Assembly (NCBI GenBank): GCA_000004985.1
Contig: GG738858.1
Origin: Naegleria gruberi
Lineage: Eukaryota
Length of the DNA stretch: 64,000 nt
Direction: 5' to 3' (one strand)
Of this stretch, positions 1 to 64,000 are shown piece after piece. Numbering within the stretch: the first letter of the stretch is position 1; the number at the start of each line of letters is the position of its first letter. Made by a program: the position numbers and the translations under genes. Under the pieces are notes generated by a model that saw only the letters and a program-made list of their open reading frames with translations, ran no database searches and had not been told where the DNA came from.

Positions 1-630
1 TTACACATGTTGGGAAGTGATAATTCATCAGGTCATGCCAATAATATGATTAATGTGGAATCTGTGGATTTAACTGGTTCAACTCCCTTGTTGATTGCCA
101 TGCAAAGAGAATGTGAAGAGATTATTCAATATTTGGTTGATCATGGAGCTAATATTAATGCTGTGGATATTAGATTGAAATCAACCCTATCGTATTGTAT
201 CAGATTTGAGGAGACGATTGCTTGGTTGCAATACTTTTTGGAGAAGGGAGCTCAAGTGAATGTTGGAGATTGTATTCATGTTGCTTGTGAGGAAGGTTAT
301 GCAGAGGCTGTTGAAATGCTTCTAAACTGGAGAAGTGATTTGGATGTTTGTTCATTCGATAGTGAAGGAAACTCTGTGTTTATTTGTTTGGTGAAACATA
401 AACATGAGAAAATGTTTGAGATTTTGAATATGATACTTCCACAAGCTCTGAAGAATTTAGATAATGATAAGGAAAAGCTGAGATGTTTGCTTCTTCTCCC
501 TTGCCAGCCACCAAAGAGTTTGAATGGAGAAGATTTGGATGTGGAATATGAAGCATTTACACTTCATGGAAAGTTAACAGAATATGGTTGCAAGGATGCT
601 TTACAATTAATTGATGCATATTCAAGCTAA
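1..630 (+). CDS. ankyrin-repeat protein, C-terminal portion (5' end lies outside window)
   Basis: ORF is open from base 1. Translation has ankyrin-repeat signatures (TPLLIAMQ...DHGANINAVD; GAQVNVGD..HVACEEGYAEAVEMLL). Stop TAA at 628-630. Confidence 0.5.
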   Translation, partial: LHMLGSDNSSGHANNMINVESVDLTGSTPLLIAMQRECEEIIQYLVDHGANINAVDIRLKSTLSYCIRFEETIAWLQYFLEKGAQVNVGDCIHVACEEGYAEAVEMLLNWRSDLDVCSFDSEGNSVFICLVKHKHEKMFEILNMILPQALKNLDNDKEKLRCLLLLPCQPPKSLNGEDLDVEYEAFTLHGKLTEYGCKDALQLIDAYSS

Positions 631-813
631 ATGAATTAAATAATATAACAGTATTCTAAAGCCAGATACTATTTAAATAATTTGCTCTTGTCTTGAAGAA
701 GTTATTTTTGAAATACTTGAAACAACCAAAGAACTTATTTCCTTTTTCAAAATCTTTAAATAGCAAAAAAATCTGGAGCCAATCAATGAATTCAACAAAG
801 AAAATAACACAAC

Positions 814-1191
814 ATGAATAATAATAACTTTAATAAAAGCATGATGAATAACAATAGAAGAGTAGGAGAGCAAGATTTGAATCCATTGCCTGGGTTTCAA
901 CCTTTACAAGGAAATGCTCCTTCCTCAATGAGTATTGGATTTGGTGGCAATCTCGTTGGACCAAATAATCCAATTTTCAATGGCTCGAATATTCCTTCTG
1001 CTTCTTCAATGGGAGGAGGTATGAAACCTCAGATGTTACCTGGTTCTAGATTTGATCCAGTTTATCCTATCATTGGGCCATTTGGAGGTTCTGTAAGTGG
1101 AAATAGAGGTGAAAGTTCTTCATCGTCTTCATTTGGAAATATTAATCCAGATCATCACAAACCTCCACAATTTGGAGATGAAGATTTGTAA
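814..1191 (+). CDS. small Gly/Ser/Pro/Asn-rich protein; C-terminal motifs resemble the proline-rich tail of the proteasome inhibitor PI31 (RFDPxxP..GPFGG ... NPDHxxPPxFGDEDL). May be only the 3' exon of a larger gene.
   Basis: ATG at 814 and an intact 125-codon ORF. Low-complexity composition; the motif resemblance was recognised by eye only. Confidence 0.3.
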   Translation: MNNNNFNKSMMNNNRRVGEQDLNPLPGFQPLQGNAPSSMSIGFGGNLVGPNNPIFNGSNIPSASSMGGGMKPQMLPGSRFDPVYPIIGPFGGSVSGNRGESSSSSSFGNINPDHHKPPQFGDEDL

Positions 1192-1307
1192 TTTCGATAA
1201 CGAGTGAAACAAGAGTTTCAATAAATATAGCCCGAGTTTAATGTGAATAAAATTTGCTTTCAAAGATTTTCAATATTCTTTATATTTATTGTGTTAAGGT
1301 AATGAAT

Positions 1308-1425
1308 GGCTACGGCCATATCACGATGAATGCACCTCATCCCGTCCGATTTGAGAAGTTAAGCATCGTCGAGCCACATCAGTACTGAGGTTGGAGACAA
1401 CTTGGGAACCTGTGGTGCTGTAGTC
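1308..1425 (+). rRNA. 5S ribosomal RNA (118 nt)
   Basis: GGCTACGGCCATATCACGATGAATGCACCTCATCCCGTCCGATTTGAGAAGTTAAGCATCGTCGAGCC...GGGAACCTGTGGTGCTGTAGTC matches the universal 5S consensus (CCCGTCCGAT, AGTTAAGC, GTACTG, CTGGGAA). A 9-bp helix I forms between the 5' GGCUACGGC and the 3' GCUGUAGUC. It is followed by a T5 run. Confidence 0.85.
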
Positions 1426-1430
1426 TTTTT
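1426..1430 (+). terminator. Pol III oligo-T terminator of 5S copy 1
   Basis: TTTTT immediately 3' of the 5S gene. Confidence 0.4.
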
Positions 1431-1538
1431 ATCACACATTAATTTCGATAAATAGATGATTCACAGCACCAAAAAAAAGGAAATTCAACTTTTTCAACAC
1501 TCATTGGAATTGCTGATTTACAGAGCTCAACAGCCAAT

Positions 1539-2675
1539 TTAGAAACACTTTCTATGAACAAAACCTGGACCAGCCTCCTCATATTCCTCTTTCGATATCC
1601 ACATCTGCTGAAAGGTTGCAAGACTCGCGAGGATACTACCTCCAATCCAAACTGAATACTTTCTTTCAGGTGGGGCGACAACCTTTATCTTCATTGAGGC
1701 TGGTGCCAAAGCAGTCAATTCCTTGGTCATTCTTTCAGCAATACCTTCGAACATGGTATTACCACCTGACAAGACAACATTTCCATACAATTCCTTTCTA
1801 ATGTCAATGTCACATTTACCAATTGAGTTGAATGCCATTTCATGAACACCAGCAGCCTCCATTTTTTCAACCAAATTAGGTTGGAATAAAACTTCTGGAC
1901 ATCTGAATCGTTCGTTACCAATTGTTATCACATTACCATCTGGTAATTCGTATAACTTTTCCACGGAGGATGATTCAGCAGCAACTTTCATTTCAGCTTC
2001 GAAATCTAAAGCAATATAACAGAGCTTTTCCTTAATACCTCTGACAACTTCTCTTTCAGCAGTAGTATTGAATGAGTAACCTCTTTCCATCAAAATATTC
2101 ATCAAACAATCAGTCAAGTCACGACCAGCCAAATCCAATCTCAAAATGGCATGTGGCAAGGCATAACCTTCATAAATTGGAACAGTGTGTGAAACACCAT
2201 CACCAGAATCCAAAACTATACCAGTACTTCTACCAGAAGCATACAATGACAAGACAGCTTGAATGGAAACATACATGGCCGGAACTGAGAAGGTTTCAAA
2301 CATGATTTGACTCATCTTTTCTCTATTTGGCTTTGGATTAAAAGGAGCTTCAGTCAACAAGACTGGATGTTCCTCAGGAGCAACACATAATTCATTGTAG
2401 AAGGTGTGATGCCAGATCTTTTCCATATCATCCCAATTAGTAACAATACCGTGCTCAATTGGATACCTTAAAGTCAAGACACCACACTTGTATTGAGCTT
2501 CATCACCAACATAGGCATCCTTACCAAACATTCCAATCATGATTGACTTTTGCTTTGGTCTAGCAACAATTGAGGGAAAGACAGCTCTTGGAGCATCATC
2601 ACCAGCAAAACCAGCTTTACACATACCAGAACCGTTGTCAACAACGAGAGTTTGAACGTCTTCATAGAAAGACAT
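1539..2675 (-). CDS. actin (divergent paralog, 378 aa)
   Basis: First ATG is at 2675-2673 ([37 protein letters not shown]...); the track's upstream 'M' is TTG. High identity by eye to conventional actin along the whole length, including the C-terminal ...[20 protein letters not shown]. No intron. Confidence 0.85.
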
Positions 2676-2967
2676 TTGATTTGTTTTTTTTAAAGTTTGT
2701 TCATCTGGACAACATTTGACAATTTGAAGTTGACTCAAGTCTTCATATCAGAGCTATCAGTCATATCCGTCAAGTAAATGAAAAAAGAACTTTTGAATTT
2801 TTGCTGGTTCCTAAATTTAGAAAATATTGAAATGATATGGAGTTGGATTGTTCTTTGTTCGATAGTAATTCAAAATAATTCAAAGATTGTTGTGAACATC
2901 CCTTGTTGAAGATCAATAGGTAAGAATGCTTACCATTCCCCAAATGATTTCATCTATATTTCAGTTT

Positions 2968-3966
2968 TTATTCAAATATTCTAATGGAAAAGGCCTGTTG
3001 ATCAGCAATGAACAATAATCCACTTTTCTCATCAAAATCCATTCCAAATGGGCTTAGTGTAGATGTAGAATCTTGTATGTGTGAATGTATTAAATTTCCA
3101 TCCAAATCAAACACTAAAATTCTCTTATTATCATAATCTGAAAGGAAGAATTTCTTGCCAGTTCTATCAATTGCAAATCCTAATGGTTGACTACAGGGAA
3201 TATTATCCACTTGGTTAATTGTTCGAATTAATTTCCATTCATTTGGATTAATCTCATCATAAATAAAGCAGGCATTAACAGCAAGATCTGAAACAATCAT
3301 CCTATTTGGTCTAAGAAATTTAACATCCACTATTCTACTGAGATTTTCAAGTTTGAGCTGGGCAATAATTTTGCCATCTGTGGTATCTATGACATCCATC
3401 TCTTTGCTCATATTGTTAAATCTGAATAATTGTTTCCGATTTCCAATTTCTCTGATGGCCATTCCATATTGATGATTAGTCTCAATACTCCAAATACATT
3501 CAGCTTCATTTCCCAATTTCAATAAATCCTTAACTCTATATTTCCCTAAACCATTTGAGCATCTAAAGTAAATGGCGTCATTATTAAAATTTTCTTCAAT
3601 CACTAAACTCATACATCTGCCAACAATTGGAAATGCTGTCAAATATTCTAAACTAGTCAAATCAAAAAATTTAATTTCCTTATTCGCATCATCAGCCACA
3701 CAAACAAAGTTATGGGTGTGAGAAATCTTTACATCGGATGGAAAGCGAAGACCATGATTCTTGTTTGAATCAATTTTTTTAATTTCATTAAACTTCATTG
3801 CAAACGGAATTGTTTTCTGATAATTTCTCATCTTGTTTTTTAATTGATCAAATAAAACATGATCGGATTTTAATTGATCAAAATCGAGCAGGGAAACATT
3901 TAGAGAGCGTGTGTCCTCTTCCTGCAATAATTGGTGAAGAAGATTCGGAGAAGGTTGTTGCGACAT
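2968..3966 (-). CDS. NHL-repeat (beta-propeller) protein, 332 aa
   Basis: ATG at 3966. NHL-type repeats are recognisable: PLGFAIDRTGKKFFLSDYDNKRILVFDLDGNLI and PFGMDFDEKSGLLFIADQQAFSIRIF. Confidence 0.5.
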   Translation of the reverse strand: MSQQPSPNLLHQLLQEEDTRSLNVSLLDFDQLKSDHVLFDQLKNKMRNYQKTIPFAMKFNEIKKIDSNKNHGLRFPSDVKISHTHNFVCVADDANKEIKFFDLTSLEYLTAFPIVGRCMSLVIEENFNNDAIYFRCSNGLGKYRVKDLLKLGNEAECIWSIETNHQYGMAIREIGNRKQLFRFNNMSKEMDVIDTTDGKIIAQLKLENLSRIVDVKFLRPNRMIVSDLAVNACFIYDEINPNEWKLIRTINQVDNIPCSQPLGFAIDRTGKKFFLSDYDNKRILVFDLDGNLIHSHIQDSTSTLSPFGMDFDEKSGLLFIADQQAFSIRIFE

Positions 3967-4153
3967 TTTTTTTTAATTTATTTTTACAACAGTTTCAATC
4001 TTTGTAACCAAACTGTGCAAGAAACACTGGAATTTGAGAGTTTTTAGTATTCTTTACAATATAGGTCCAGCCTTGTTTAATATATAACATGAATAAATTT
4101 TGCTTTCGGAGATTTTCAATATTCTTTATATTCATTGTATTAAGGTAATGAAT

Positions 4154-4271
4154 GGCTACGGCCATATCACGATGAAAGCACCTCATCCCGTCCGATTTGA
4201 GAAGTTAAGCATCGTCGAGCCACATCAGTACTGAGGTTGGAGACAACTTGGGAACCTGTGGTGCTGTAGTC
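4154..4271 (+). rRNA. 5S ribosomal RNA, second copy (118 nt; one A/T difference from copy 1)
   Basis: Near-identical to 1308-1425. The same conserved upstream block of about 85 bp (..ttttgctttc.gagattttcaatattctttatatt.attgt.ttaaggtaatgaatGGCTACGG) is present. Followed by a T5 run at 4272-4276. Confidence 0.85.
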
Positions 4272-4452
4272 TTTTTAATTAAGTTTTAAGACACATGAAT
4301 CTTTAAAGTTGTTCATGTAGTCTTTTTGAGGAGAATTTTACTCCCTGTTCAAAGTATTAACATTTGATATTTGGGCATTTAATTAAAGTAGTACCACAAC
4401 ATCTTTCTCGGCCAATTGGCTTTGATCGAGTGAAGTTTCTGTTCTTTTCAGT

Positions 4453-4842
4453 TTAATAGCTGAAAGCAGCCCAAGGGTTGCCTCCTCTCAATCTCAATAC
4501 TAAATGCACAGTTGAGTCCTTTTGAAGATTGTAATCATTAATGGTTCTGCCATCTTCCAATTGTTTTCCTGCATAAATCAATCGTTGTTGATCTGAAGGA
4601 ATACCTTCTTTATCAAATATCTTTTGTTTCATATTCTCAACAGTATCACTCGATTCCATTTCAATTGTAATTGTCTTTCCAGTTAAGGTTTTTACTTGTT
4701 TTCCAGCAAAGATGAGTCTTTGTTGATCTGGTGAAATTCCTTCCTTTTCTTGAACTTTTCTTTTCACATTTTCAATTGAATCATTAGATTCAACTTCCAA
4801 AGTGATTGTTCTACCAATGAGTGTCTTGACGAATAATTGCAT
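4453..4842 (-). CDS. ubiquitin-like protein with internal partial duplication (Ub residues 1-49 fused to Ub residues 5-76, then GG + NPWAAFSY tail), 129 aa
   Basis: ATG at 4842-4840. [29 protein letters not shown] is followed by [53 protein letters not shown]48/K63 equivalents and the GG are retained in the second unit. Confidence 0.7.
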
Positions 4843-4844
4843 TA

Positions 4845-5036
4845 TGTTTGTTGTTTTTTTTTCTTATTGTTTTTCTTTGAATTCAAAGCATTTCTTTGCA
4901 TTTTATTCTTGTAAACCTCCATTCCAATAAGATTTGGTTGAAATAATATCTCAGTAGTTTTGAATCTTTCATTCCCAAGTGAAATTACATTTCCATCTGG
5001 CAATTCTAGACCGTGGGAGGTGAGAAGGATTGACAA
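4845..5036 (-). pseudogene. detached actin C-terminal fragment (..[31 protein letters not shown]..), then non-actin Lys-rich sequence
   Basis: An in-frame stretch matches actin residues ~240-275 and the equivalent region of the 1539-2675 actin. The track 'start' is TTG. Its stop TAA overlaps the ATG of the Ub-like gene (TAATG). No valid splice joins it to the 5497-6225 ORF. Confidence 0.4.
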
Positions 5037-5496
5037 ATATTTTAAAAAAAAATTAAGAAGTCACTCAAAAAACAATTTGTTAAAGTCGAGCCGAAGGTTT
5101 ATTGGACCAAGAGTGAGACAGTGTGTTCAAAGTATCAATTACCACTTGTTCTTCTAGAAACAAGTACTTCTGGGTTCTTGTACATGAACCTTCGCTTTAA
5201 TGTACCAACAATTTCAAGTAAATGGGCAGGCACTTATCTAGATGATGTTTTGGTGAGGTGAATGTAGTAATGGCTGGTGAGGAAGGAAGCAAAGGGAGAA
5301 CTCTCCTCATGGTGGCTTCTCAAGGTAGCATGCTGAAGGTGGGAATACCAACCAATATACCTATTTAGCAGGGTGATGATGAAATCATGATGAGTAATTG
5401 TTGTTTGTTGTTTTTTTTTGTTGAATATTTAACGGTCAGAACAGACAACTTTCAGCGGTTATTGGTTGGCGCGAAATTACCGTGATGTAACATTTT

Positions 5497-6225
5497 TTAG
5501 CTCACCTCCCTCGGTCTAGGCAATTCATATAAACTTTCTTTCGCTGTTTCTGCCAAAAAATTACTGGCAACATAACCAGTTTTTTCCTTCATATCCCTGA
5601 CTAGTTCAGTTTCACCCATCGTGCTGAAATTATATCCTCGTTCCATTAACATTTTCTTCAAATAATCTGTCAGGTCTTTGCCTCCTAATTCCAATCTTTT
5701 GGTGGCATGTGACAGGGCATATCCTTCATAAACAGGTACTGAATTAGTGACGCCATCACCTGATTCCAATACTACACCTGTCATTCTACCATTTGCAAAT
5801 ATTGACATGGCACATTGATTTGCCAAACACAAACCTCTCACCTTAAAACTTTCAAACATGATTTGTGTCATTTTCACTTTCACATCCTTTGAATTTAGTG
5901 GCATTTCCATCAGTAATACTTCATGCTCCTCAGGAGCAACTCTTAACTCATTGTAAAATGTATGATGCCATATCTTTTCCATATGATACCAATCTGAAAT
6001 TAATCCACGATCAATTGGATATTTGTAAACATTAATACCCCTCCTACACAATGCATAATCTCCAACGTAAGTTTCGATAGAGCCCATTGAAAGGAGGAAG
6101 GGTGCTACTTTTCGATGTGAAGTTACTGTGGGAAAGACTGCTCGTGGAGCATAATCACCAGAAAAACCAGCTTTCATTTGAGAGGAACCATTATCAATGA
6201 TGAGTGGTGGATTTTCATCAGTCAT
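5497..6225 (-). CDS. actin-like protein, N-terminal two thirds only (242 aa; clearly less similar to actin than the 1539-2675 paralog), ending ..ESLYELPRPREVS*. Probably truncated or pseudogenised.
   Basis: ATG at 6225. IIDNGSSQMKAGFSGDYAPRAVFPT...[24 protein letters not shown]...SGDGVTNSVPVYEGYALSHA are actin-fold motifs. The ORF terminates where actin continues (ELPDGQVI..). The stop lies in GAG GTG AGC TAA, which is donor-like, but no in-frame acceptor rescues it. Confidence 0.55.
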   Translation of the reverse strand: MTDENPPLIIDNGSSQMKAGFSGDYAPRAVFPTVTSHRKVAPFLLSMGSIETYVGDYALCRRGINVYKYPIDRGLISDWYHMEKIWHHTFYNELRVAPEEHEVLLMEMPLNSKDVKVKMTQIMFESFKVRGLCLANQCAMSIFANGRMTGVVLESGDGVTNSVPVYEGYALSHATKRLELGGKDLTDYLKKMLMERGYNFSTMGETELVRDMKEKTGYVASNFLAETAKESLYELPRPREVS

Positions 6226-6323
6226 TTTTTTTTGTAAGTTTTAAATTGGGAACTTGGAACAATATTTCACTTGCATTAAAAGTTCAAAATTTTTGTGATT
6301 ATCTCAATAATATAAAATCTTAA

Positions 6324-6394
6324 CTCGAACGCCGGGAATTGAACCCGGGTCGCCAGAGTGACAGTCTGGAATGCTACCACTATACCACGCCCGA
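6324..6394 (-). tRNA. trnD-GUC: tRNA-Asp (anticodon GUC)
   Basis: Reverse complement is TCGGGCG TG GTAT AGTGGTA GCAT T CCAGA CTGTCAC TCTGG CGAC CCGGG TTCAATT CCCGG CGTTCGA G. It gives a cloverleaf with the anticodon loop CUGUCAC and a GGTTCAATTCC T-arm. Confidence 0.8.
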
Positions 6395-6599
6395 TTACAT
6401 ACCTTACGAAATCTCACCTTAATTCACCTTAATAACAAATCTCACTCAATTCTGGCTAATTTGTATTTATTCAAAGGTATTTATGTTTTTAAAAGCTCCA
6501 TGAACTTGGCTGGAAATTCAATTAAATGTGGAAACTTCTCTATTTGTTTCAGATGTGCATTTTCGAAAATGCATCTTTTTTTTCAAATATGAATCACAA

Positions 6600-7808
6600 A
6601 TGGACAAAGTTGATGGAAACACAACCAAAAAAATGGATCCACAACTAACGTTCAAGGCATACAGCAAGATTGAAAATCATCATCAGGAGAGTTTCGTTTC
6701 AAAGTTATTGGAAAAGGAAACTGAAGATTCGGATAAGAAATTGGAATGGGTTTGCTTGGAGAAAGTGCATGGTAGCAATTTCAGCTTTATTGTTGTTCCT
6801 AAAGAAGGATCACAAGATAAAGTTGAAGTATTGAAAGCAAATCGTACCAATGTTCTTACCATATTAAGTAATTTCTTTGTGGAAGCTCAAAAAGAAGTTT
6901 ACGAAAGATATTACAAGAGTTGTGTTAAATTATTCGAAATTATTTCTCAAAATGCAGAAAAATTCAAACGAAAGACTATGGAAACTGAAAGTGAAATTAC
7001 AAAAATTCACATATTTGGTGAATTATTTGGTGGATACTTTCCAAAATTGAAAAATGATCAAGATTCGAATGGTATTCGTAAAGCACACATTCAAAAAGGT
7101 GTTTACTATTGTCCACATTATGATTTTTACGTATTTGATGTGGCAGTGACATTTGGCGACCAAGATACTTGGTTACTTTTCGATGAGGCAGATCCAATTC
7201 TTGAAGAAGCAGGATTTAGAGTTAGAGCTAAACCACTTTTTAGAGGTTCATTGAAGGAATGTTTGGATTTTGATGTGGAAATTAACACGATAATTCCACA
7301 AACTTTTTATTCTGACATTTTGACAGAAAATGATATTTTATTTAAGGAAAAGGAAAATATTTGTGAAGGAGTGGTGATTAAACCTGCTAATGGTACTGTA
7401 TTTGTCGGATCGAGGGCAATTATTAAGAAGAAGAATTCAAAATTTACTGAAGTCAATCCTGCCAAAGATAAATCTAAACGAATGAAGAAACAGGAAAAAT
7501 CTGTGGATCAAGACGAACAAGAAATGATTTCTAATGTGTGGAATGAAATTGAGCGATATTTGAATAATAATCGTCTTGATAATGTCGTTTCCAAAGTTGG
7601 AAATATTACTAGAGAAAATCTTTCACTTGTTTTGAAGAATTTTGTGAACGATGCCATTGAGGATTATGATAAAGATCAACAAGAATTGGGAGAAGAAGGA
7701 GCTACCCTATCATCCCTTCCAGTCAACATTCAAAAATCAATCAAGAAGAAATTGGGATCCACCTGTCAAGCAATTCTTCTAAAATACATGAACGAAAACA
7801 AACAATAA
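6600..7808 (+). CDS. ATP-dependent RNA ligase, Rnl2 (RNA ligase 2) / RNA-editing-ligase family, 402 aa
   Basis: First ATG is at 6600 (MDKVDGN..); the track start is GTG at 6528. Nucleotidyltransferase motif I is the Rnl2-type K-x-H-G-x-N-F (EWVCLEKVHGSNFSF). Further motifs are IFGELFGG and EGVVIKP (motif V). Confidence 0.6.
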   Translation: MDKVDGNTTKKMDPQLTFKAYSKIENHHQESFVSKLLEKETEDSDKKLEWVCLEKVHGSNFSFIVVPKEGSQDKVEVLKANRTNVLTILSNFFVEAQKEVYERYYKSCVKLFEIISQNAEKFKRKTMETESEITKIHIFGELFGGYFPKLKNDQDSNGIRKAHIQKGVYYCPHYDFYVFDVAVTFGDQDTWLLFDEADPILEEAGFRVRAKPLFRGSLKECLDFDVEINTIIPQTFYSDILTENDILFKEKENICEGVVIKPANGTVFVGSRAIIKKKNSKFTEVNPAKDKSKRMKKQEKSVDQDEQEMISNVWNEIERYLNNNRLDNVVSKVGNITRENLSLVLKNFVNDAIEDYDKDQQELGEEGATLSSLPVNIQKSIKKKLGSTCQAILLKYMNENKQ

Positions 7809-58330: not shown

Positions 58331-59871
58331 AATTGAAATATATCAATTTTGACATTTCTTAATGACATGGATAGTTCACTAAGGTAGTAACTTTGTCATA
58401 TGACAACTATCTAAGATGATATTGAAATCATTCCAAAACTGATAATATGAGAGTATATGATGATTATAACACGATATCAATGAATTGGTATTGATTTTAA
58501 ACATTGTTGACATGTAGGAATGTTACCTTTGATCAATTGGACCAGTAACTTGACAGATATCCCATTTATATAGATATTGATTTCTATCACTCAGAAACGT
58601 TACCAATATCATTTATAAGAGTAGTGGTATGATATTCTATCTTTTTGCACATCTTGATATTGACTTGTCATATTGTCATGAGTAGTCACCGACATGGCTA
58701 AATGACATGAATATTGAATGATGTCCAAATGATTTGAAATTGATAGTAACCTCATTATATGATGTTATTAACATATTGTATCAATTTGGTAATGAATCTC
58801 ATTGTCCTTAGGGTACTTTCCTATTGAGGTACCTTAATTGACTATCTCAATATTTAATATGAGATATGATATTTATTTCAATTCCACCATGTTGTATATG
58901 TAATTTGAAGCATTTTGATATAAGTTTTGATATATAATTATGATTTATTAGACATTATATATAGCATGTCTTAGTTTTACAAATTTGACTTTGAGATTCC
59001 CTAATTGACCATATATATATGTCCAATTGGTGAAACTAATATCAATCGACTAGATTTTCAATTGTGAACACAGTGGTATCAATAGTTATATGATTCATGA
59101 TAGTTTAAAATTGACTTGGTCATCTAAGGATAGGTCATTAAGGTTTGAATGAATTGATATGAAAATCAATACCAATTATTGAAATACCATTATTAATTGA
59201 TCTATATATGATATTGTAATTGAAAGATTTTAAAATTAATATGATTTCACTATCTTGACATTTATTATTCTCATGATTACACTCCTGACAGGTTGAATGA
59301 TTTCAAATTGTCATGAAACTGATGCAGTAGTGTTTATTCACCATTAGTAAGGTAATGTATCAATTATATGATGATCTGTATAGTAGATGTCATTGTCACA
59401 TCCCTGTATGTATCAAGTGGATCAGCCATGTACCATGTATGATATGGATGAATGTCAAAATGATATTAATGTATTTAATTATCATGTATATATGTATTGG
59501 AAGTGAATTGAAGTGGTATAGATTTCTATCTTCAATGTTAGTATAGGTCAGTTGACAAGTTGAATAGTATATTTCTTGAAATGATACCAAAGTATTTGAA
59601 ATTGATATATTTTGTTATTGACATGATTTATAAGATGATATATTGATTTGAAATGATTTTGAAATGTTTTCATTGATATTCTAATTGTCTAATCTATTAT
59701 ATGAAATAAACTTATATAAGTCATTATAATGATGTAATATTATGTTATAATATGATTATATATTCAATTTGGAGTATATTGATATATAATATATTGATTT
59801 ATAATGAGTATTTATTGAGATAATTAATTAAGATGAATAAAAGTCAAAATGTTGGGTCTGACCTTAGTCGT

Positions 59872-60175
59872 GGGTTTGGGTTTGGGTTGGGTTTGGGTTT
59901 GGGTTTGGGTTTGGGTTTGGGTTTGGGTTTGGGTTTGGGTTTGGGTTTGGGTTTGGGTTTGGGTTTGGGTTTGGGTTTGGGTTTGGGTTTGGGTTTGGGT
60001 TTGGGTTTGGGTTTGGGTTTGGGTTTGGGTTTGGGTTTGGGTTTGGGTTTGGGTTTGGGTTTGGGTTTGGGTTTGGGTTTGGGTTTGGGTTTGGGTTTGG
60101 GTTTGGGTTTGGGTTTGGGTTTGGGGTTGGGTTTGGGTTTGGGTTTGGGTTTGGGTTTGGGTTTGGGTTTGGGTT
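59872..60175 (+). repeat. (GGGTTT)n telomere-type tract (about 50 units), truncated by assembly gap
   Basis: Perfect gggttt hexamers with 2 variants. It runs into N at 60176. Confidence 0.85.
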
Positions 60176-61171
60176 NNNNNNNNNNNNNNNNNNNNNNNNN
60201 NNNNNNNNNNNNNNNNNNNNNNNNNNNNNNNNNNNNNNNNNNNNNNNNNNNNNNNNNNNNNNNNNNNNNNNNNNNNNNNNNNNNNNNNNNNNNNNNNNNN
60301 NNNNNNNNNNNNNNNNNNNNNNNNNNNNNNNNNNNNNNNNNNNNNNNNNNNNNNNNNNNNNNNNNNNNNNNNNNNNNNNNNNNNNNNNNNNNNNNNNNNN
60401 NNNNNNNNNNNNNNNNNNNNNNNNNNNNNNNNNNNNNNNNNNNNNNNNNNNNNNNNNNNNNNNNNNNNNNNNNNNNNNNNNNNNNNNNNNNNNNNNNNNN
60501 NNNNNNNNNNNNNNNNNNNNNNNNNNNNNNNNNNNNNNNNNNNNNNNNNNNNNNNNNNNNNNNNNNNNNNNNNNNNNNNNNNNNNNNNNNNNNNNNNNNN
60601 NNNNNNNNNNNNNNNNNNNNNNNNNNNNNNNNNNNNNNNNNNNNNNNNNNNNNNNNNNNNNNNNNNNNNNNNNNNNNNNNNNNNNNNNNNNNNNNNNNNN
60701 NNNNNNNNNNNNNNNNNNNNNNNNNNNNNNNNNNNNNNNNNNNNNNNNNNNNNNNNNNNNNNNNNNNNNNNNNNNNNNNNNNNNNNNNNNNNNNNNNNNN
60801 NNNNNNNNNNNNNNNNNNNNNNNNNNNNNNNNNNNNNNNNNNNNNNNNNNNNNNNNNNNNNNNNNNNNNNNNNNNNNNNNNNNNNNNNNNNNNNNNNNNN
60901 NNNNNNNNNNNNNNNNNNNNNNNNNNNNNNNNNNNNNNNNNNNNNNNNNNNNNNNNNNNNNNNNNNNNNNNNNNNNNNNNNNNNNNNNNNNNNNNNNNNN
61001 NNNNNNNNNNNNNNNNNNNNNNNNNNNNNNNNNNNNNNNNNNNNNNNNNNNNNNNNNNNNNNNNNNNNNNNNNNNNNNNNNNNNNNNNNNNNNNNNNNNN
61101 NNNNNNNNNNNNNNNNNNNNNNNNNNNNNNNNNNNNNNNNNNNNNNNNNNNNNNNNNNNNNNNNNNNNNNN
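60176..61171. other. assembly gap (996 N)
   Basis: Run of n. Confidence 0.95.
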
Positions 61172-61690
61172 TATGGAAACACTATAACATTCAATCAAAC
61201 TCATTAATATAGTAGCAAATACCAATGATAATCATATATAATTGAAATAATCATGTTTGGAACCATATTCAGACTTGCGGAAGTCAACTTGTGTGAAATT
61301 GACAATATTTGTAATAGAAGGATGAATATCTTACATGACTTAATCCCACTGATTGATACATGTCTAATTATCATATTTTATGATATGTAATTGGAATAAT
61401 TGAAATTTATCATATATATAGGGAGATAACCAATTAGGATGAAAGTTGGGGAAATTACGCTCACTATTTACCAGGTAAACATTTTCAATAGGGACCTATA
61501 TATTTTATTTGATAATATCGTATATCTATGTATTTTATCGACATATAATTGGTTTCATGATTTTATTTTCTATATTTCCAATTTGGGAAATGTTGCAATG
61601 TCTAATCTCAATTGAAATATGGCCATAATACCAATTATTGATTATACATCATGAAACTGATATTATAGACTCTAATTGATGTTAATAGGG
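61172..61690. repeat. TAS repeat, copy 2 (partial, begins at gap)
   Basis: About 95% identical to 63265-63783. It ends with ..gactctaattgatgttaata followed by gggtttgggggttttggggtttgggtttgggtta. Confidence 0.7.
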
Positions 61691-61804
61691 TTTGGGGGTT
61701 TTGGGGTTTGGGTTTGGGTTAGACGAAAACCCATCGACGACTAACGAACGGCCAATATTGAGTATCTGAATTTCATATATGTCATTCAAATATAAATAAA
61801 AAGC

Positions 61805-62235
61805 TTTGGGTTTGTGGGGGGGTTGGGTTTGGGTTTGGGTTTGGGTTTGGGTTTGGGTTTGGGTTTGGGTTTGGGTTTGGGTTTGGGTTTGGGTTTGGGT
61901 TTGGGTTTGGGTTTGGGTTTGGGTTTGGGTTTGGGTTTGGGTTTGGGTTTGGGTTTGGGTTTGGGTTTGGGTTTGGGTTTGGGTTTGGGTTTGGGTTTGG
62001 GTTTGGGTTTGGGTTTGGGTTTGGGTTTGGGTTTGGGTTTGGGTTTGGGTTTGGGTTTGGGTTTGGGTTTGGGTTTGGGTTGGGTTTGGGTTTGGGTTTG
62101 GGTTTGGGTTTGGGTTTGGGTTTGGGTTTGGGTTTGGGTTTGGGTTTGGGTTTGGGTTTGGGTTTGGGTTTGGGTTTGGGTTTGGGTTTGGGTTTGGGTT
62201 TGGGTTTGGGTTTTGGGTTTGGGTCTGGGTTTGGA
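61805..62235 (+). repeat. (GGGTTT)n telomere-type tract (about 70 units), truncated by assembly gap
   Basis: Perfect hexamers after a degenerate start (gggtttgtgggggggttggg). Confidence 0.85.
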
Positions 62236-62285
62236 NNNNNNNNNNNNNNNNNNNNNNNNNNNNNNNNNNNNNNNNNNNNNNNNNN
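62236..62285. other. assembly gap (50 N)
   Basis: Run of n. Confidence 0.95.
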
Positions 62286-62618
62286 ATGATTGGAATAAAT
62301 TTCACTGAGATGGAGTGTTCACTAGGATATATATAATTTTGATATTGAACATTTACTGATTAATTTTATGAAAATAGTTTGAAATGTTTCTTAACTATTG
62401 TAGATGTATATTAATTGATATATAGACTATGTGGTATCAATTCTAGACTTATTATATGTAAAATGAGTGAGTTGGAGTATAATCTATGATATTATGTAAA
62501 ATGTCTATAGTAAATTGATAGAGTTGACATCTCGACATCTACTGAACCAATATTCATGAAATTGATACCACATACTAATTAGAGTGTCTACATACCATGA
62601 TATCAATTTCAGTGAAAT

Positions 62619-62634
62619 TGGGTTTGGGTTTGGG
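62619..62634 (+). repeat. interstitial telomeric repeat (GGGTTT)x2.5 capping a truncated copy of the segmental-duplication unit
   Basis: ..tcaatttcagtgaaatt|gggtttgggtttggg|agactgtagggtaaatccattaccc. The sequence before it matches 54150-54175 and 56230-56256 of the duplicated unit. Confidence 0.75.
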
Positions 62635-62635
62635 A

Positions 62636-63783
62636 GACTGTAGGGTAAATCCATTACCCAAATTTAGTTGTCCAATTGTTGCAAATTGACTTTTACCAAT
62701 ATCATACTAGACGTTGTACACTATATAATAAAAAAGAAATGGAATTTTAATTCACTGTACTTATTCAGAAAATCAACTCTGAAAACTAGTGCTTAACTTT
62801 TATTTTTCATTTCCTAGTAACGAGTATGACTTGGAACACAATCATTTCAAGTATGACAGATACACATATGAGTTGACTATAATCACAAAAATATTTGAAA
62901 AATATAAAGTCTAGAAAAAGTTATAAGGCACTGCTTAAAACATAAAGATTTTTACCCTGTTGGGTCTGAAATTTCAAAGTTGAGTTGGAATGTAAATTTG
63001 ACTATATTGTAGATATATAGATGAATAGATGATATTATGAATTAATCATGTTGAATCGGTATATGTAAAAATTACAACTTGTCTAATAATTAACTTTTCA
63101 ACATTTATTGTACTATAATATGAATATTATTATAATCATCATCAATCTCATATATATGATGTATAATGATGATATCTACCTTGTAGAATTGTTGGAAGTA
63201 TAATATATATTATCCTTAGTATACTGTACTCATTCTACCTTAATTGACCAAGATATTGAGCCATACTATGGAAACACTATAACATTCAATAAAACTCATT
63301 AACATAGTAGCAAATACCAATGATAATCATATATAATTGAAATAATCATGTTTGGAACCATATTCAGACTTGTGGAAGTCAACTTGTGTGAAATTGACAA
63401 TATTTGTAATAGAAGGATGAATATCTTACATGACTTAATTCCACTCATTGATACATGTCTAATTATCATGTTTTATGATATGTAATTGAAATAATTGAAA
63501 TTTATCATATATATAGGGAGATAATCAATTAGGATGAAAGTTGGGGAAATTACGCTCACTTTTTACCAGGTAAACACTTTCAATAGGGACCCATATATTT
63601 TATTTGATAATATCGTATATCTATGTATTTTATCGACATATAATTGGTTTCATGATTTTATATTCTATATTTCCAATTTGGGAAATGTTGCAATGTCTAA
63701 TCTCAATTGAAATATGGCCATGATATCAATTGTTGATTATACATCATGAAACCTGATATTCTAGACTCTAATTGATGTTAATA
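62636..63783. repeat. TAS repeat, copy 3 (full length), immediately proximal to terminal telomere tract
   Basis: See copies 1 and 2. Confidence 0.7.
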
Positions 63784-64000
63784 GGGTTTGGGGGTTTTGG
63801 GGTTTGGGTTTGGGTTAGGTTTTGGGTTTGGGTTTGGGTTTGGGTTTGGGTTTGGGTTTGGGTTTGGGTTTGGGTTTGGGTTTGGGTTTGGGTTTGGGTT
63901 TGGGTTTGGGTTTGGGTTTGGGTTTGGGTTTGGGTTTGGGTTTGGGTTTGGGTTTGGGTTTGGGTTTGGGTTTGGGTTTGGGTTTGGGTTTGGGTTCGGG
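63784..64000 (+). repeat. terminal (GGGTTT)n telomere tract with G-rich strand 5'->3' toward window end (chromosome end to the right)
   Basis: gggtttgggggttttggggtttgggtttgggttaggttttggg, then perfect gggttt to the last base. Confidence 0.8.

Follow-up and report, generated by a model that had tools for sequence, protein, structure and literature searches.

A species-specific upstream block and a TATA-like box at dispersed 5S rRNA genes of Naegleria gruberi

Introduction

The genes for 5S ribosomal RNA (rRNA) are dispersed in the genomes of Neurospora crassa, Schizosaccharomyces pombe and Arabidopsis, where a TATA-like box located near -30 to -25 accompanies the internal control region. The flanks of these dispersed fungal and plant genes are otherwise unrelated to each other, and their copies undergo birth-and-death turnover. 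In the present work, we describe two 5S rRNA genes (referred to as copies A and B) from Naegleria gruberi, which are found in a stretch of DNA comprising the last 64 kb of scaffold_14 (hereafter the window), and the sequence that these two genes share upstream of their first base. As in the fungal and plant systems, the 5S genes of Naegleria are scattered and have a TATA-like box upstream, and by analogy each of them would be transcribed individually. However, the extent of the shared sequence is different. The fungal and plant copies have in common approximately the TATA box and a few bases, whereas in Naegleria the shared 5' sequence covers about 64–79 bp in two neighbouring copies of N. gruberi and 38–80 bp among four copies of N. 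lovaniensis. In both of these species, the shared unit extends from tens of bases upstream of the gene exactly to its terminator, and the upstream sequence is specific for the species.

Two other kinds of 5S gene organization are also pertinent here. The 5S genes of Yarrowia lipolytica are scattered outside of the ribosomal DNA (rDNA) unit, as they are in Naegleria, and the question of independence from TFIIIA is common to both organisms (PMC2566860). However, Y. lipolytica has dicistronic genes consisting of a transfer RNA (tRNA) and a 5S rRNA, which are TFIIIA-independent (PMC2566860), whereas the 5S genes of Naegleria have no tRNA gene abutting them. At its closest, a tRNA gene is found 234 bp upstream of a 5S copy (in N. 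lovaniensis), while the copies in the window have none and each is preceded by a TATA-like box. The tandem 5S rDNA arrays of animals, plants, Trichomonas and trypanosomes resemble the Naegleria genes in that their flanks are homogeneous within a species and divergent between species (concerted evolution). They differ in that the Naegleria genes do not form head-to-tail repeats and only their 5' side is homogenised.

The 5S genes of N. gruberi have been studied earlier. According to the text of that study, 279 putative 5S genes were identified by BLASTN; they were reported to have elements of an internal control region, a TATA box upstream and terminators made of T runs; and BLAST and PSI-BLAST searches yielded no TFIIIA homologue in this species (PLoS One 2012;7:e36878; PMC3369914). 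The extended 5' block of 64–79 bp, its absence on the 3' side and its species specificity are not described in the text of that paper.

Identity of the two genes and the 5S family of N. gruberi

Both copies (Table 1) exceed the gathering score of 38 for the Rfam family RF00001 and cover its full model (model positions 1–120). They differ from each other at only one of 119 positions (T1331 versus A4177, corresponding to position 24 of the RNA), which bears out the original prediction, made from the letters of this DNA, of two 5S genes that are more than 99% identical. Both variants of position 24 are also present in other Naegleria species. When the genes were compared with those from other Naegleria species and from metagenome relatives, compensatory changes were observed in 15 of the 39 predicted helix pairs of the three-way-junction structure, which argues that the sequences compared are functional 5S genes. 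Based upon a pattern search, the gene contains a match to the box A consensus at +50 and a match with two mismatches to box C at +80; the pattern for the intermediate element is too degenerate to be informative, and the bases of the internal control region are also under RNA-structure constraint. Both copies end in a run of five T residues (T5), which lies within the range of the T4–T6 runs in which Naegleria tRNA genes terminate.

If the window represents the last 64,000 bases of scaffold_14, the coordinates of the two copies on this scaffold are 719,560 and 722,406. These coordinates match two rows in Table S1 of the published catalogue (scaffold_14 719563-719679 for copy A and 722406-722525 for copy B; PMC3369914) and therefore both copies are ordinary, already published members of the dispersed 5S family of N. 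gruberi. The 279 rows of this table are distributed over 117 scaffolds and their spacing gives no indication of a tandem unit length. The smallest gap between the copies is 462 bp, followed by gaps of at least 1.1 kb, and protein-coding genes are present in between. A neighbour within 5 kb is found for 22% of the copies, in comparison to the 6.6% expected under a Poisson model, and many pairs are 1.5–3.5 kb apart, so that the 2.8-kb spacing of the pair in the window is typical. No tandem repeat was detected at the 5S genes by Tandem Repeats Finder, nor are they arranged in a head-to-tail array. The family is dispersed, with loose local pairs. In Table 1 of PMC3369914 the N. gruberi 5S genes are scored as 'tandem', but the coordinates given in the same work contain only loose pairs at 1.1–5 kb.

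Table 1. Coordinates for the 5S rRNA genes and for associated features in the window and in related species (positions with a minus sign are relative to the first base of the gene)
Feature	Coordinates	Strand	Basis or remarks
5S rRNA gene, copy A (T at position 24)	1308..1426	+	Rfam RF00001, 105.4 bits; Table S1 of PMC3369914
5S rRNA gene, copy B (A at position 24)	4154..4272	+	Rfam RF00001, 106.3 bits; Table S1 of PMC3369914
T5 run, Pol III terminator of copy A	1426..1430	+	T4–T6 runs at Naegleria tRNA ends; similarity to copy B ends here
T5 run, Pol III terminator of copy B	4272..4276	+	T4–T6 runs at Naegleria tRNA ends
Shared upstream block, copy A	1236..1307	+	Solid identity 1244-1307 (-64 to -1); GTTTAAT at 1236-1242 is the weaker distal edge
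Shared upstream block, copy B	4075..4153	+	Solid identity 4090-4153; GTTTAAT at 4075-4081, then a 7-bp insertion relative to copy A
TATA-like box TTTATATT, copy A	1279..1286	+	-29 to -22, core TATA at -27 to -24
TATA-like box TTTATATT, copy B	4125..4132	+	-29 to -22
U2 small nuclear RNA gene	4399..4521	+	Rfam RF00004, 74.2 bits; between copy B and the ubiquitin-like open reading frame, outside the repeated unit
N. fowleri 5S	L006:8504-8622	+	Actin-anchored locus
N. lovaniensis 5S	L025:5360-5478	+	Actin-anchored locus
N. lovaniensis 5S	L025:5918-6036	-	Actin-anchored locus
N. lovaniensis 5S	L025:8280-8398	-	Actin-anchored locus
N. lovaniensis 5S	L026:7987-8105	-	Actin-anchored locus

The shared upstream block

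The two genes had been predicted to share about 85 bp of their 5' flanks and nothing of their 3' flanks. The sharing of the 5' flank is clear, but its length was overestimated, as solid identity extends over only about 64–69 bp and similarity is weaker from there to -72 (copy A) or -79 (copy B). In the alignment of the two flanks, 59 of the 64 positions from -64 to -1 are identical, with mismatches at -56, -46, -45, -21 and -15. The more distal heptamer GTTTAAT is located at -72 to -66 in copy A and at -79 to -73 in copy B, being displaced by a 7-bp indel. The shared block, which contains TTTGCTTTC..AGATTTTCAATATTCTTTATATT, is perfectly conserved over a 24-nt stretch (-44 to -22) and over the proximal 14 nt, whereas the flanks outside of the block are random with respect to each other. 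It is also less conserved than the gene that it precedes, with five mismatches in 64 positions (92% identity) as against one in 119 (99%).

The alignment score of the upstream regions of copies A and B (91) is far above the maximum of 31 obtained with dinucleotide shuffles. The 34-nt core of the block occurs in the window only at these two sites, and no match to it was seen in any of 100 shuffles. A sensitive blastn search detected no further, degenerate copy of the block in the window, and a permissive Rfam scan of positions 1–7000 indicated no other RNA within it. On the 3' side, as predicted, the similarity stops at the T5 run and the sequences beyond it are unrelated (local alignment, p = 0.44). 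One candidate for a hidden similarity between the 3' flanks (ACACATKAAT) was not significant and was rejected.

Comparison with 5S genes from related species

The 5S genes of related species were gathered from actin-anchored loci (Table 1) and by scanning metagenomes with a 27-mer derived from the 5S gene. The metagenome scan led to the identification of 13 contigs. About 10 of these are from the whole-genome shotgun sets VFQM and VFQO, which represent one other eukaryote whose 5S is approximately 84% identical to that of Naegleria, and a 5S gene of the N. gruberi type is found on just one environmental contig, L012, which matches part of L027 identically. No match to the same 27-mer was found in the GTDB genome and viral collections. 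At least 10 dispersed 5S copies are present in VFQM and VFQO (L008–L019), and several of their variants in helices II and III are compensated.

Upstream similarity was examined by local alignment of the 80 nt preceding each gene, minus the last 6 nt, in comparison to dinucleotide shuffles. All six pairs of N. lovaniensis copies were significantly similar in this region, with scores of 28–53 against null maxima of 22–25; the p value of 0.003 for each pair is the floor of the test, as the observed score was reached in 0 of 300 shuffles. Their 3' flanks were not significantly similar in any of the six pairs. N. lovaniensis thus has its own, different block, which is likewise not accompanied by a shared 3' flank. 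The shared upstream length is 38–80 bp among the four copies, all of which have GAAnGATTAAAACTGTTATTTnGTATTCATGAAT directly before +1, and a distal ATCAAAAnCCAC motif is common to three of them. Between species, no upstream similarity beyond chance was observed, including the comparisons of N. fowleri with N. lovaniensis and of L012 with N. gruberi. The 5S gene of L012 is 100% identical to copy B, but its upstream sequence is different and lacks the N. gruberi block. Two candidates for homology of the blocks across species (AAAGATT... in N. gruberi and N. lovaniensis, and AAATTTG in L012) were rejected, as these alignments were no better than those of shuffled sequences.

One feature of the block that is retained outside of N. 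gruberi is the TATA-like box. The original prediction had suggested that a TATA-like sequence be sought at about -30, and in both copies TTTATATT is found at -29 to -22 (Table 1). Three of the N. lovaniensis copies have ATTAAAA at -29 to -23, and the counterpart of this A/T-rich box in N. fowleri is TAATATC with AAAA. In nine VFQM/VFQO copies, whose flanks are otherwise unrelated, TATA is present at -26 to -23 in at least six, and minor conserved signals are seen at -33/-32 and -2/-1. Thus, a TATA-like box in the region from about -30 to -22 keeps its position despite unrelated flanks, and the tRNA genes of the same genomes do not have the TATA-like box that is seen upstream of 5S. The positional TATA in the nine copies together with its absence from the tRNA genes supports the presence of an upstream TATA element that is specific for the 5S genes. 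This result agrees with the TATA box reported in the text of PMC3369914. By analogy with the 5S genes of Neurospora, S. pombe and Arabidopsis, RNA polymerase III (Pol III) would use the box through TBP and Brf1. Immediately before the gene, the sequence TGAAT (-5 to -1) is present in seven of eight Naegleria 5S copies from three species, L012 having TAGAT instead. Across species, the shared upstream sequence is limited to this pentamer and to the A/T-rich TATA-like box near -29 to -22.

Some observations were also made concerning the turnover and state of individual copies. The N. fowleri gene (L006:8504-8622, plus strand) and one N. lovaniensis gene (L025:8280-8398, minus strand) are located in the same intergenic interval, beside a gene of 99/100 residues upstream of actin, but in opposite orientations. 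The remaining N. lovaniensis copies have no counterpart in N. fowleri, and no 5S gene was found at the hydrolase-linked loci of N. lovaniensis, a further Naegleria and Willaertia. The distribution of these copies suggests fast gain, loss or inversion of 5S genes in Naegleria. In another N. lovaniensis copy (L025:5918-6036), a change of G18 to A breaks a helix pair (A-C, columns 18 and 60), and this copy may be decaying. The tRNA gene mentioned in the Introduction occupies L026:8339-8410 (minus strand) and has the same orientation as the 5S gene downstream of it (L026:7987-8105).

Function and origin of the upstream block

The explanation that we favour, and to which we assign a probability of roughly 0.6, is that each copy is a self-contained Pol III unit of about 200 bp, in which the part of the block not serving as promoter stems from recent relatedness or from conversion. 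Such a unit would consist of an upstream promoter with the TATA-like box, the 119-nt gene with its box A and box C-like sequences, and the T5 terminator. The upstream parts that are likely to matter are the TATA-like box at -29 to -22 and the start-site context TGAAT at -5 to -1. The rest of the block (to about -64/-79) would be alike because the copies are recent relatives and not because every base is needed. We read this remainder as a sign of descent because identity is 99% in the gene, 92% in the block and random outside of it, and because the block is not kept between species or in L012. As to the mechanism, we infer either a short-range duplication of the ~200-bp unit or, alternatively, gene conversion with a tract that would extend over the promoter and the gene and keep the copies alike. 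On the 3' side the similarity ends exactly at the terminator in all six copies, which come from two species, so that selection or conversion, rather than chance breakpoints, appears to keep a functional cassette. The original prediction had offered two views of the conserved flank, as a promoter element for Pol III located upstream or as a small unit that had been retroposed or duplicated. The first of these possibilities fits the TATA-like box and TGAAT, but not the whole block of 65–85 bp, which has no cross-species similarity and is absent from L012. Duplication accounts for the remainder of the block, in view of the separate blocks of N. lovaniensis and the excess of near neighbours in N. 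gruberi (22% versus 6.6%), but again not for the block as a whole. Retroposition finds no support, as neither a tail nor a consistent target-site duplication is present.

A number of points weigh against this explanation. The comparison of flanks in N. gruberi is based upon two copies, A and B, so that the block may belong to the whole family or to this pair alone. In N. lovaniensis, the four copies are all on one contig, three of them within 3 kb and the fourth 49 kb away, and they could represent a regional sub-family. The contig L012 may come from another species, and its hydrolase has no match in N. gruberi. Additionally, the N. lovaniensis copy at L026:7987-8105 has a 7-bp insertion that separates the conserved block from the start site and speaks against a strictly spaced block in this species.

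The alternative that survives best, although we regard it as unlikely, is that the whole block of 65–85 bp is a functional, species-specific external promoter, comprising a distal element resembling a proximal or upstream sequence element (PSE/USE) in addition to the TATA box, which is largely independent of TFIIIA and co-evolves rapidly with the Pol III machinery of Naegleria, much like the spacer promoters of rDNA. The arrangement does resemble that of Pol III type 3 promoters (U6, 7SK), with a TATA-like box around -27, and the sequence conserved from about -45 to -64 is in the region that the PSE/USE occupies in such promoters. The absence of a reported TFIIIA homologue in N. gruberi (text of PMC3369914), the perfect conservation of 24 nt (-44 to -22) and of the proximal 14 nt between copies A and B within otherwise random outer flanks, and the distal ATCAAAAnCCAC motif of three N. 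lovaniensis copies all point in the same direction, as does the asymmetry of the similarity, which in two species ends at the terminator on the 3' side and yet runs 38–85 bp upstream. However, in contrast to type 3 promoters, the gene retains a match to box A and a box C-like sequence internally and the distal block is not kept between species, the upstream regions showing no similarity for any species pair, even for N. fowleri and N. lovaniensis. Further, L012 has an identical 5S without the block, the VFQM/VFQO copies keep only the TATA and start-proximal bases, and the 7-bp insertion in the L026 copy of N. lovaniensis is tolerated. A PSE/USE common to snRNA genes was looked for by comparison with the region upstream of the U2 gene in the window, and no significant motif was found: the best alignment had 29/62 matches, and the chance per position was about 0.01 with some 16 offsets tried. 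A PSE common to 5S and U2 (TTCAAAG near -50 and TTAARGTART near -10), which looked alike by eye, was rejected for the same lack of significance.

It is also conceivable, but in our judgement quite improbable, that one local duplication left the block behind as a purely neutral remnant, about 200 bp having been copied 2.8 kb away together with a functionless 5' flank. Copies A and B have the same orientation and a spacing of 2,846 bp, loose pairs at 1.5–3.5 kb are common in the family, the lower identity of the block in comparison to the gene is as expected if constraint acts on the gene only, and L012, the sole other 5S of N. gruberi type that was compared, is without the block. Nevertheless, random breakpoints would be unlikely to place the 3' edge exactly at the terminator in six copies from two species and to yield similar 5' edges among the N. 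lovaniensis copies. The TATA-like box is moreover located where the independent VFQM/VFQO copies have a conserved TATA, and TGAAT at -5 to -1 is common to three species. Lastly, we consider it highly improbable that the copies were spread via an RNA intermediate, i.e., by reverse transcription and insertion, along with its promoter, of a transcript reaching from ~70–85 nt upstream to the terminator: the 3' boundary of the repeated unit is the terminator in every copy, and the N. fowleri (L006) and N. lovaniensis (L025) copies are non-syntenic, with one inverted, indicating rapid gain and loss, but both copies in the window are full-length 5S genes that end at the terminator with no A-rich or other tail, unlike retroposed copies or short interspersed elements derived from 5S, the flank repeats of 7 nt (copy A, p = 0.31) and 8 nt (copy B, p = 0.05) do not form a consistent target-site duplication, nothing upstream points to a start or promoter for such a transcript, and a Pol III transcript initiated upstream would probably stop at the TTTT located at -40 to -37 within the block, T4 runs being found after Naegleria tRNA genes.

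Gene neighbourhood and linkage with actin

Each copy had been described as lying 110–180 bp beyond the 3' end of a convergently transcribed gene, and this accords with the observed distances: copy A is separated from the actin stop (1539) by 112 bp, and copy B is separated from the stop of a ubiquitin-like open reading frame (ORF), at 4453, by 180 bp. The further statement that each copy is placed 3' of an actin-family gene applies to copy A but not to copy B, whose convergent neighbour is, based upon Pfam, the ubiquitin-like ORF (4453-4842, minus strand). Copy A is located in a gap of 347 bp between two converging genes, a PI31-domain gene that ends at 1191 and the actin gene (1539-2675, minus strand), whose product is 100% identical to N. 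gruberi NAEGRDRAFT_44432. The actin gene and a gene for an NHL-repeat protein (2968-3966, minus strand) are found between the two copies. The latter gene, which is the divergent upstream neighbour of copy B, encodes a protein that has a 100% identical counterpart among the predicted proteins of N. gruberi, on the same 782,252-bp contig as NAEGRDRAFT_44432, and no detectable homologue outside of N. gruberi. A truncated actin-like ORF (5497-6225, minus strand) is present 1.2 kb from copy B. This ORF encodes 242 residues that correspond to positions 2–266 of the 410 positions in the Pfam Actin profile, and it probably represents either a paralogue that has been truncated or a gene continuing beyond an intron (below 5497).

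In the related species, a 5S gene was present within 10 kb of actin at one of six actin loci in N. fowleri and at two of three in N. lovaniensis. Against a base rate of ~13% per 20 kb, derived from the density of 5S copies in N. gruberi, these frequencies correspond to a p value of about 0.1, and an association between 5S and actin is not statistically established. Two further actin contigs from metagenome and NCBI data (L030 and L031) contained tRNA genes but no 5S gene.

The U2 small nuclear RNA gene listed in Table 1 was missed in the original prediction. The last ~23 codons of the ubiquitin-like ORF overlap this gene on the opposite strand. In this ORF, a truncated ubiquitin repeat is joined to a complete one, after which comes a tail of eight residues (NPWAAFSY) encoded inside the U2 gene. 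The ORF could be a pseudogene or a rearranged polyubiquitin gene, or it could contain an unspliced intron. The stretch of U2 that pairs with the branch point is usually GUGUAGUA; here it is GUGAAGUU, and relative to the Rfam model most of the 3' half is deleted.

Elsewhere in the window, an ORF for an Rnl2-type RNA ligase (6528-7808, plus strand; Pfam RNA_ligase and T4_Rnl2_C) is adjoined by a tRNA-Asp gene (6324-6394, minus strand). Toward the end of the window, telomere-like arrays of TTTGGG are present at 59871-60175, 61805-62234 and 63800-64000, with runs of N in between, and an element of ~550 bp (61175-61730) recurs, nearly identical by eye, at about 63262-63800. The region 59871-64000 looks like several chromosome ends or subtelomeric repeats that have been scaffolded together.

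Significance

The two genes described here and the TATA box have been published before, and scattered 5S families preceded by a TATA box are of a known kind, so in this respect the finding matters little. What is new, and modest in extent, is that the 5S copies in each of two Naegleria species share tens of bases on their 5' side and nothing past the terminator, and that these blocks differ completely between the species. If this is true across all copies, the Naegleria genes would provide a tractable case for studying how the homogeneity of a promoter and its gene is maintained in a scattered family that has no tandem arrays. They would also be a case for asking whether 5S genes in an organism without a recognisable TFIIIA are driven from outside of the gene. 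In its strongest form, which we hold to be rather doubtful, the 5S genes would be driven mainly by a fast-evolving, species-specific external promoter of ~40–80 bp without TFIIIA, and the cassette of ~200 bp would have been multiplied and homogenised over ~280 sites. If true, such an external-promoter cassette would parallel, among dispersed genes, the concerted evolution that tandem rDNA undergoes together with its spacer promoters.

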